From: Narcine bancroftii
Taxonomy: Eukaryota
Assembly (NCBI RefSeq): GCF_036971445.1
Contig: NC_091478.1
Coordinates: forward strand, 11,222,001 to 11,286,000
Direction: 5' to 3'
Length of the DNA: 64,000 bases
A model generated the notes under the pieces. That model saw only the letters and a list, made by a program, of their open reading frames with translations. It was not told the DNA's origin and did not search any database. Numbering within the stretch: position 1 is the stretch's first letter; the number at the start of each line of letters is the position of its first letter. The translations under genes were made by a program, and so were the position numbers. Positions 55,500-58,291 of this stretch are shown piece after piece.

Positions 55500-56251
55500 T
55501 ATGAGTAATATTTATGTGGTGAAACTAAGATGTGGATGCTCTCAGAATGACAAAAGGTGAAAGATATATTTTCCAGAAGTTGTTGGATCAATAAATCAGA
55601 TGAATTTTGGAGCATTATGCTGATAAACCAATTTGAAAAAAAATAATGAACAAAGAATCAAAAATTGCAAATCTTGCTCGCTATGACCATTAAGACCATT
55701 TTATGTTGATTTTTTTTTTCTTTTAGAATTTTTTATCATGGTAATGTAATGAAATCTACATGCTGAAACGTAAATATTAAAGAAAGTTTTGGTTGCGAAT
55801 TGTGGCATTAGATACATCTCCACCAAAAGAATCAATTTTCTTAGTTTTTCAACTTTTACAAGTGGTTTCATTAACTAGTTGTTGATCTGTAAAATGTGAA
55901 ACCAGAATTGTGAAATAAAAAAAATATAGAATTAATATTGAATGTTAAGGTATGAATTCAAGTTCTCCCTCTGAAGCATAACAATATTAGCATGTAATGA
56001 TTTCTCAAACTGTTGGCATTCTGCAATAGTGAGACAAACTAATATTCATTGAGGGTCATTGTAAAGGAACTTTATTTTAGAATCGTCTTTAAAAATTTTA
56101 TATGCATGATGTTTTATGGTAACTATGATATTGGATACTAGTGTATTTCAATTTTTATATCACAACTTGTATCTTTGATTTCATAACTGACTAATTTAGC
56201 TATTTCAGTCCTTGATTTTAATGATTTGTATTTTCTTCTTGCCTCCTGAAG

Positions 56252-56380
56252 GTGAGACTAGTGAGATCATCTCCACCAAATCCCCAGTTCAGAGCAACTT
56301 TTCAGGAATCCTACCAGGTCTATAAACAGTACCAGATGGCCATCCACAAGGATCCCCCTGATAAAGCAACTGAACAGCAG
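56252..56380 (+). CDS. ATE1: ATE1 mutually exclusive exon 7A ([43 protein letters not shown])
   Basis: 129 nt, phase 0/0; acceptor CCTGAAG|, donor CAG|GTTAGA. Not in the ORF track. Confidence 0.96.
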
Positions 56381-57552
56381 GTTAGAATTAGATGCACTTA
56401 ATTCTTAAATTTTATAGGTAAAGCAACTAGGCCGGTGAAAGGATTGTCACTGGATTCAGAGGAAAATGTATTCATTGAAATATTTCTTCTCCTTTCCAAT
56501 CTCAATAGGGTTTTACATTAATAGATAAATACCTTATAACTCTACCTGTAAAAATATATATATATACTGCAAGTGAGAATAAATATAGCATTTTTGTTTT
56601 AAAGCTTTGTGACAAGATTGTATACATAAACCCTAACCGTAATCAAATTATAACCATGTGTGAAATTTCATAAAACATTAGATTCATTTAAGAAATTATA
56701 ACAAATATTCTGCAATTTCTGAAATGACCAGAATCAAATTTATGAGCATGTATGATCACGTTAACAAAAATATTTTCAAACCAATTCCAAAATCAGAAGC
56801 CATTTCTTCTTTGCAGTTAGATGATCAGTTATAGTACAGTTTTAACAATGCACTTCTGTTTTGCTATGAAATGTGACATCGTAAAACTGTGCTGGGGCAG
56901 TCCTGTACATATGCATGCACAGATCTTAAGTGCCGTGTAGAATTTTAATTGTTATGGGAGTCCAGAGCCCAGAAATTGTATACAGTATCAATAATGTTTA
57001 ACCTGATATCAGGAAAGACTCGAATTCTTTCTAAATTAAATTCTTTCAGATTAATGTTTACCCTGCACTTTTGGGCCCACCTATCTTAGAAAGGGCACGT
57101 GTGTTGTTCTATGTGAATTCCTTGGAATGATGCCAAGCACAGGAGACTATTTCCAGTGACAGTGGGGAAAAAAGTAAGAGGTGATGTTTCTATTTTCAAA
57201 TTGAGCTCCGATAGATTGAACAGAGGAAAGACTTGTTCTTTCCCGAGATTGATGTGAAAAGATCATGTTTAAAATTGTCAAGAAGGGATTTTCCTTGCAT
57301 AGATTGCTTTCACGGTCCAACCAACAACCTTTACACTCGTGCTGGGTTTGCAGAGTATCCTTCATAATAATGTTTTGAATTAGTCAAGAGACCAGTAGTG
57401 AACTCCACCGTACAAGCAGTTACGTGTGCAAGGCAGAGACCATATGGTCCAAGGGAAAAGTCAAGTCATTCTAATGATTCACCAACAATTTGACAGCCAA
57501 TTTGTCAGGGTAAACATAAAGAATGTTAGCAGCTTGGAAACATGGGTGAACA

Positions 57553-57900
57553 TAGGAAGTAGGAACAGGAGTAGGCCAAAAATAGCCCATCGAGCCTGCT
57601 CCGCCATTCAATTCGGTCATGGATGATCTTAAAGTTCAGTACCCCATCCCCGCCTTCTCTCCGTAACCCCTAATTCCCTTATACTGAAGAAATATATCTA
57701 ATTCCCTCTTAAATAGGAACAAAGGAAGTAGGAACAGGAGTAGGCCAAAAATGGCCCATCGAGCCTGCTCCGCCATTCAATACGATCATGGCTGATCTAA
57801 TTTATGAGCTAACTCCACCTACCTGCCTTCTCCCCATATCCCCTAATTCCTCTATCATGTAAAAATTTATCTAACCGAATTTTAAATATGTTTAATGAGG
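57553..57900 (-). mobile_element. Two tandem CR1-type 3' ends
   Basis: AGGAAGTAGGAACAGGAGTAGGCCAAAAAT.GCCCATCGAGCCTGCTCCGCCATTCAAT occurs at about 57554 and 57723. Confidence 0.75.
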
Positions 57901-58042
57901 CAGATGAAAAGTTGCTCATCCAGTTGATGTTGTTCATTACCAACAAATGGCCATCAAATAGAAAAGAATATACTAGCTACAAATTTGTAGAGCTTAATTT
58001 GACGTTTAGTTGAATGAATATTGAACTGGATGTGGAGAACCT

Positions 58043-58067
58043 GCGCTACTCTTGCCTTCAGTGGTAA
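58043..58067 (+). promoter_or_regulatory. Candidate intronic splicing-regulatory RNA docking element (GCGCTACTCTTGCCTTCAGTGGTAA)
   Basis: Complementary, with G-U pairs, to both 56239-56263 and 58153-58175, which span the 7A and 7B acceptors. Confidence 0.75.
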
Positions 58068-58162
58068 AACTAAATAGTAAATCTTTGCCAATTTAATTTC
58101 CTATTCTAAACATTTTATCAATTATTTACATTGAATGTTTACATGGATCTCCTGCCCTGAAG

Positions 58163-58291
58163 GTGAAACTAGTGCCAGTTTCCTTCGATGATCCAGGTTT
58201 CACTGAATCCTTTAACCAATCAGCGACTCTATATTCCAAGTATCAGATGGCTGTGCACCATGATTCAGATGATGAATGTAGTGTGTCAGAG
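58163..58291 (+). CDS. ATE1: ATE1 mutually exclusive exon 7B (VKLVPVSFDDPGFTESFNQSATLYSKYQMAVHHDSDDECSVSE)
   Basis: 129 nt, phase 0/0; acceptor CCTGAAG|, donor GAG|GTAACT; paralogous to 7A. Not in the ORF track. Confidence 0.96.

Follow-up and report, generated by a model that had tools for sequence, protein, structure and literature searches.

In the electric ray Narcine bancroftii, a short element in the intron between two duplicated exons of ATE1, 7A and 7B, is likely to be a counterpart of the human R3 element: a masking site shared by the two acceptors that would hide one of them at a time. We give this reading, including descent of the switch from the jawed-vertebrate ancestor, a probability of roughly 0.7. 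With somewhat less confidence, though still as the probable history, we regard the R1/R3/R4 switch as a jawed-vertebrate invention, held by pair-keeping changes while R3 shifted within a range of 50 to 340 nt from its target; in both exons it would have frozen codons one to four. This would make the switch more than 400 million years old.

ATE1 encodes a protein-tagging enzyme. The analysed stretch of 64 000 nt (hereafter the window) carries the 5′ half of the gene on its + strand, where most exons of P0007, a protein with the source label Narcine bancroftii (electric ray), were identical letter for letter in tblastn. Exon 8, of 33 nt, starts 8.9 kb beyond the window end. Exons 7A and 7B are separated by an intron of 1782 nt, with 14.6 kb from 7B on to exon 8; both have AG and GT ends, and they are identical at 69 of 129 nt and 16 of 43 amino acids. 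The human isoform ATE1-2 (8TZV) is closer to 7B (E-value 2.8e-11) than to 7A (1.6e-07), and ATE1-2 is the 7b form by the definition given in the available part of the human study (PMC7797038). In a tree of 37 exon peptides, hand-picked across taxa out of 123 retrieved proteins, the A and B copies were fully split with 100/100 support. Sharks, rays, bony fishes and tetrapods stood on each side of the split; thus, the exon duplication is older than the separation of sharks from bony fishes. This much is already known: in the text accessible to us PMC7797038 dates the duplication after the chordate radiation, and an alternative published dating, likewise known to us in part, takes it back to Bilateria. 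The isoform matches, the tree and P0007 agree with the sequence-only reading, which had named the gene, the two exons and a cartilaginous lineage from the letters of the window.

Two features elsewhere in the gene may be recorded here. At the exon 6 acceptor (49330-49357) a run of A replaces the pyrimidine tract immediately 5′ of AAG. There are also two alternative first exons (30833-30919 and 32262-32360), and between them lies a GC-rich 27-nt tandem repeat in 37 copies (31156-32204).

Table 1. Features of the ATE1 region in the window (positions are those of the window)
Feature	Positions	Strand	Remarks
ATE1 exon 6, upstream constitutive exon	49358..49608	+	tblastn with P0007; boundaries from sequence
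R1 equivalent: exon 7A 3′ splice site and first 12 nt; 5′ arm of the putative long-range duplex	56239..56263	+	-28.2 kcal/mol with R3
Exon 7A, 129 nt, 43 aa, orthologue of mammalian 7a	56252..56380	+	translation; tree 100/100
High-copy repeat insertion, 357 nt, two tandem units	57541..57897	.	joint 57540-57898 in run X13; very high depth; direct repeats D1, D2
R3 equivalent: shared intronic element, complementary to both acceptors	58043..58067	+	best intron site for both probes
R4 equivalent: exon 7B 3′ splice site and first 13 nt; 3′ arm of the putative local hairpin	58153..58175	+	-26.2 kcal/mol with R3
Exon 7B, 129 nt, 43 aa, orthologue of mammalian 7b	58163..58291	+	best match human ATE1-2, 8TZV

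The three strings that the sequence-only reading had picked out as partners lie where it placed them, and the pairings it drew were reproduced. The R1:R3 duplex has 22 bp (5+12+5) interrupted by one C-C mismatch and one 2x1 loop; it was recovered in the minimum-energy fold of 56200-58300 and evaluates to -28.1 kcal/mol, while duplexfold on the two strings gave the tabulated energy with 21 bp. The R3:R4 duplex has 20 bp (6+10+4) with a 3x3 loop and a 1-nt bulge, its tabulated energy also coming from duplexfold. Both occupy the same R3 bases, so the helices are mutually exclusive, and each buries the AG of one acceptor (56250-56251 for 7A, 58161-58162 for 7B). Divergent as they are, the two exons have in common CCTGAAG before and GTGA.ACTAGTG after the acceptor junction. 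R3 and R4 are 85 nt apart, which is the length of the hairpin loop, and 1779 nt separate R1 from R3. Unguided local folds form R3:R4, with pair probabilities of 0.87-1.0 in its core. In the fold, the 40 nt on the 5′ side of R3 (58003-58042) form a local hairpin and lengthen the R3:R4 helix by 5 bp.

Following the human experiments, the R3:R4 hairpin would mask the 7B acceptor and lead to 6-7A-8, and R1:R3, formed with a site 1.8 kb upstream, would mask the 7A acceptor, loop 7A out and lead to 6-7B-8. If R3 normally sits on one partner, double inclusion would be suppressed rather than abolished, and loss of R3 would, as in human, be expected to bring double inclusion. Because the energies of the duplexes differ by only 2 kcal/mol, the 7A/7B ratio is likely to be governed by folding order or kinetics and by proteins. 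For human ATE1, effects of ZFR, ILF2 and ILF3 have been reported in the sources available in part.

Evidence on splice forms came from contigs and gene models. Contigs were compared from 7 of 16 runs, none of which is on record as RNA, and rare forms are dropped by contigs. Run X15 gave, for organism E, a contig of 183 nt that holds the end of exon 6, the full 7B and the start of exon 8 in spliced order, agreeing with the ray at 23 of 26 letters in the exon 6 part and 27 of 28 in the exon 8 part. Its length (26+129+28 nt) would fit a 31-mer assembly with an alternative path GTGA...AG, as in 7A. From run X5, which is guessed to be RNA, comes an own-species contig that spans exactly the 7A exon and leaves it at 56380, with 904 letters before the exon and 33 after; the 33 trailing letters equal exon 8 in length, and the contig presumably represents 6-7A-8. 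Runs X6 and X7 gave nothing on 57930-58350 and X5 gave nothing on 7B, observations that speak neither to absence nor to level, as contigs can show neither; runs X8 and X12, almost solely repeat, covered neither R1-R4 nor the exons. Among nine own-species gene models two have 7A only, two have 7B only and five have both in tandem. Tandem 7A+7B proteins made up 13 of 31 from cartilaginous fishes and 75 of 92 from other vertebrates (88/123 in all) in a search that favours two-exon proteins. Double inclusion is nearly absent in human RNA according to the available text of PMC7797038; given that tandem models are common all the same, gene models would show that there is leak, not its level.

The pairing was compared with chance by using rule-fixed 27-nt acceptor probes (-15..+12), with dinucleotide shuffles and tiles of real sequence as controls. 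Position 58043 was the best site of the 7A-7B intron for both probes. Over the whole intron, R1:R3 was reached by 1 of 200 shuffles and R3:R4, whose energy alone is unremarkable, by 23 of 200. Real tiles attained the observed energy in 5 of 147 cases for R1 and 55 of 147 for R4, and a joint R1+R4 site appeared in 3 of 100 shuffles. Taken alone, the sequence statistics are moderate overall and weak for R3:R4.

These figures bear on the most serious competitor to the shared-site reading, namely, that only one duplex works in the ray (either R3:R4, which would damp 7B, or R1:R3, which would loop 7A out), the other being a by-product of similar duplicated acceptors, with the ratio tuned and exclusion unenforced. 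The poor showing of R3:R4 against the whole-intron nulls would agree with this, as would the fact that R1 and R4 energies are correlated across shuffles (r = 0.58); the two duplexes are not independent because R1 and R4 resemble each other. Equilibrium folding also gives no balance: in the 2.1-kb fold (56200-58300) the core pairs of R1:R3 have probabilities of 0.94-0.97 and those of R3:R4 only 0.03. The teleost evidence given below is limited to R3:R4, and the frequency of tandem gene models points the same way. On the other hand, among the 24 shuffles with good R1 pairing just one attained the observed R4 energy, both duplexes are functional in human as far as PMC7797038 was available, and the paralogous ray acceptors share synonymous codons only in the paired stretch, where 7A and 7B have identical codons at 3/3 four- and six-fold residues compared with 0/4 elsewhere. 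We consider a single working duplex unlikely.

A comparison over a longer evolutionary distance was provided by metagenome contigs, which were scanned with an alignment of eight 7b peptides; 113 candidates yielded two loci. Contig L022 carries a teleost 7b exon (39 of 43 amino acids identical to a cichlid 7b) and 1054 nt of the upstream intron, ending short of 7a; 1015 nt of this intron were searched. L023 begins within exon 7b and is without R3. The best partner of the L022 acceptor probe was L022:687-710 (-26.5; 6 of 500 shuffles as good), which lies 341 nt from R4 and has pairing probabilities of ∼1 in the local fold. Within it, 19 of the 20 bases of L022:687-706 are paired in a helix that spans the 7b junction in the register seen in the ray, so that the pairing recurs in this lineage. 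The teleost and ray R3 are identical at 12 of 20 positions; among the eight differences four are one-sided and keep the pair, one is two-sided (G-C to A-U), and the remaining three pair in a single species, two in the teleost and one in the ray. Cross-species duplexes between ray and teleost have energies of -23 to -25. As L022 is without 7a, the sole test of competition there was teleost R3 with ray R1, for which 8 of 200 shuffles were as good. Ray 7A, ray 7B and teleost 7b all carry the string TGAAGGTGA.ACTAGTG. At four- and six-fold residues ray 7B and teleost 7b use the same codon at 3/3 positions within the first four and at 2/11 elsewhere; taken over all residues this codon test is weak (Fisher p 0.085).

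It could be argued that the switch works and that R3 nevertheless arose separately in rays, teleosts and mammals, leaving no common-ancestor date. The R3-R4 distance varies from 51 nt in human (a figure from the partly available source) to 85 nt in the ray and 341 nt in the teleost; ray and teleost introns have no flanking similarity around R3; in plain local alignment ray R3 comes merely fifth for teleost R3; and sites complementary to near-identical targets look alike anyway. Still, ray and teleost share the intron, the side and the register, the exon duplication is older than the shark-bony fish split, and three origins are less parsimonious than one. Separate origins therefore appear improbable to us.

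In other respects the wider scans were negative. Viral contigs and genome contigs gave no ATE1 relative; seven exact 17-mer matches in viral contigs encode neither exon, and a 14-nt ray-teleost match at extended position 67542 (E-value 0.3-1), located in retrotransposon-like sequence, was taken as chance. Rfam had no matches in the window, L002 or L022.

The controls were also confined to the vicinity of 7B. In a 196-nt region whose end lies 20 nt upstream of 7B, prompted by the human 51-nt spacing yet picked once the site was known, the observed energies were reached by 0 of 2000 shuffles for R1, 2 of 2000 for R4 and 0 of 2000 for both, and by 4, 24 and 2 of 483 real tiles, respectively. A scan of all 64 kb with 35-nt probes placed the 58043 site fourth for R1 and beyond the top 10 for R4, GC-rich sites elsewhere outscoring R3. 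With R3 used as the probe, the ranking among 12 ATE1 acceptors was 7A (-28.2), 7B (-23.2) and the next at -18.3, and the 7A and 7B acceptors took the first two places (-29.3 and -27.2; next -24.0) when 4723 windows covering exon 6 to exon 8 were ranked, although R3 had been selected for its fit and the first rank is partly built into both lists. The third-best partner, a 14-bp complement at 50371-50384 (-24.0), falls within an inverted-repeat element of intron 6 and is likely due to chance.

That the complementarity is accidental, with protein and splice-site constraints preserving the acceptor and exon start and splicing proteins choosing the exon, is the least probable of the readings weighed here: V1 and V4 are indeed invariant in the 118 A and 91 B exons retrieved and sites of equal or better energy exist elsewhere in the window, but a second lineage has a complement in the same register (the 6 of 500 shuffles above), protein constraint leaves the third codon positions and the intronic TGAAG unexplained, and the near-acceptor test gave 0 of 2000. 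Other routes to exclusive exon use were discarded: both exons have 129 nt and keep the frame, which speaks against nonsense-mediated decay; the 7A-7B intron of 1782 nt speaks against steric clash; and both donors are ordinary GT, which speaks against U12/spliceosome incompatibility.

A closer relative of the ray, organism D (run X13), differs by ∼9% in the intron pieces. One change is listed in R3, 58045 G>A, which turns a G-U into an A-U pair in both helices; 6 of the 75 possible single changes in R3 improve both duplexes. In the organism D piece 4 of 11 differences, near contig ends, are unlisted, so that 58057-58067 is unseen. R4 has no listed differences, and neither does the part of R1 that lies in the intron; given 9% divergence, identity over such short stretches would count as weak evidence. 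The pairing has thus been followed so far in two species, the teleost for R3:R4 and organism D for R3 in part. The stretch 58003-58042 shows zero listed substitutions and one 3-nt insertion relative to organism D. The 357-nt repeat insertion lies between R1 and R3 and is missing in organism D, which implies that the R1:R3 loop was recently enlarged by about a quarter. Together, the match in R1/R3/R4 layout and the pairing in the teleost and the closer relative argue for a switch equivalent to the human one, as the sequence-only reading had suggested.

We also searched for a long-range module like the human R2:R5. The top candidate in the ray pairs 56897-56919 with L002:2693-2716, 8.4 kb past 7B and in the expected order; the top 30-nt window joins 56891 to extended position 66692 (-35.3; next -31.4) and has a 14-bp Watson-Crick core. 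This is no better than chance, as 69 of 300 shuffles gave at least 14 bp, 11 of 100 attained the energy, and so did 19 of 45 real tiles. The teleost candidate (L022:535-553 with 1939-1959) was matched by 17 of 40 shuffles. Its 3′ arm still pairs in L023. Of 116 overlapping windows, 2 reach the score of its 5′ arm with the ray candidate, which is the best match of that arm; the 3′ arm shows no such preference (51 of 973). An R2:R5 module as old as the R1/R3/R4 switch is conceivable, though we hold it doubtful.

Several features of these regions deserve mention in their own right. The R2:R5-like candidate spans 56887-56931 and L002:2678-2721 (G000:C22:11288678-11288721), with TGCATG in both arms, which we take to be an RBFOX-type motif. 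A block of ∼265 nt on the 3′ side of exon 7b (L022:1720-1985, L023:725-988) is strongly conserved from one teleost contig to the other. Pairing with L022:535-553 is possible for the 3′ portion of the block, where L023 has two changes that preserve it. The 7B-8 intron of the ray contains, at L002:5390-7208, a 37-nt tandem repeat in 49 copies; a unit variant present in most copies includes a 13-nt complement to 58004-58016, just 5′ of R3, which is likely a chance match.

Human ATE1 is the nearest known system (Kalinina et al. 2021, PMC7797038). The sequence-only reading had named competition of R1-R3 with R3-R4 as the basis of the human 7a/7b choice; it is so described in the available text of that study, with mutagenesis and oligonucleotide data, and the authors count it there among the few vertebrate competing-helix exon choices shown with compensatory mutants. 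The ray shares with this system the gene, the orthologous 129-nt exons, similar R1 and R4 over the two acceptors, and an R3 in the intervening intron near 7b that is complementary to both; the likeness of ray R3 to human R3 lies solely in position and presumed function. R3 stands 85 nt from R4 and 1779 nt from R1 in the ray, compared with spacings of 51 and 952 nt in human, and the ray energies (-26/-28) are weaker than the human ones (-33/-36), though the values come from different programs. In contrast to human ATE1 as described in the accessible part of PMC7797038, the search in the ray gave no convincing R2:R5 module, and the excess of CUGAGG reported for the human intron is absent in the ray intron (1 seen, 1.8 expected).

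The same source, as far as available, calls R1 and R4 conserved across vertebrate species, which makes the ray case less novel than the sequence-only reading implied; its species set may already include fishes. No report of the ATE1 elements in cartilaginous fishes was met in the literature searched, most subscription journals lying outside it, nor did a text search for the motifs bring up anything relevant. The authors also state, in the text we could draw on, that they were unable to trace where R1, R3 and R4 came from; a jawed-vertebrate origin, if true, would answer this remark. A common register in ray and teleost would set a minimum age for the module and supply natural compensatory variants, and the ray locus offers a compact system, in which the exons lie 1.8 kb apart and exon 8 follows after 14.6 kb.

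Two further systems help to place the ray switch; background was also taken from the accessible portions of PMC8052449, PMC8373072, PMC9741552 and PMC10790352. A precedent for intronic pairing kept from human to elephant shark is ISRE1/ISRE2 of SCN-alpha exons 5a/5b (PMC12772994); in the part of that source available, it appears as a single ratio-biasing helix that leaves the acceptors uncovered and involves no competition, unlike ray ATE1. The docking site and selectors of Drosophila Dscam1 exon 6, as presented in excerpts of PMC6071210 and PMC7797038, resemble the ray in having a shared site with several partners and one helix at once. The Dscam1 helix promotes the adjacent exon according to the same excerpts, whereas the ray ATE1 helix, as in human, would mask the acceptor it binds; with both ray helices covering the AG and the first exon bases, we did not assign the element to the docking/selector class. 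The competing-helix mechanism itself is not new, and the ray element is a counterpart of the known human module.
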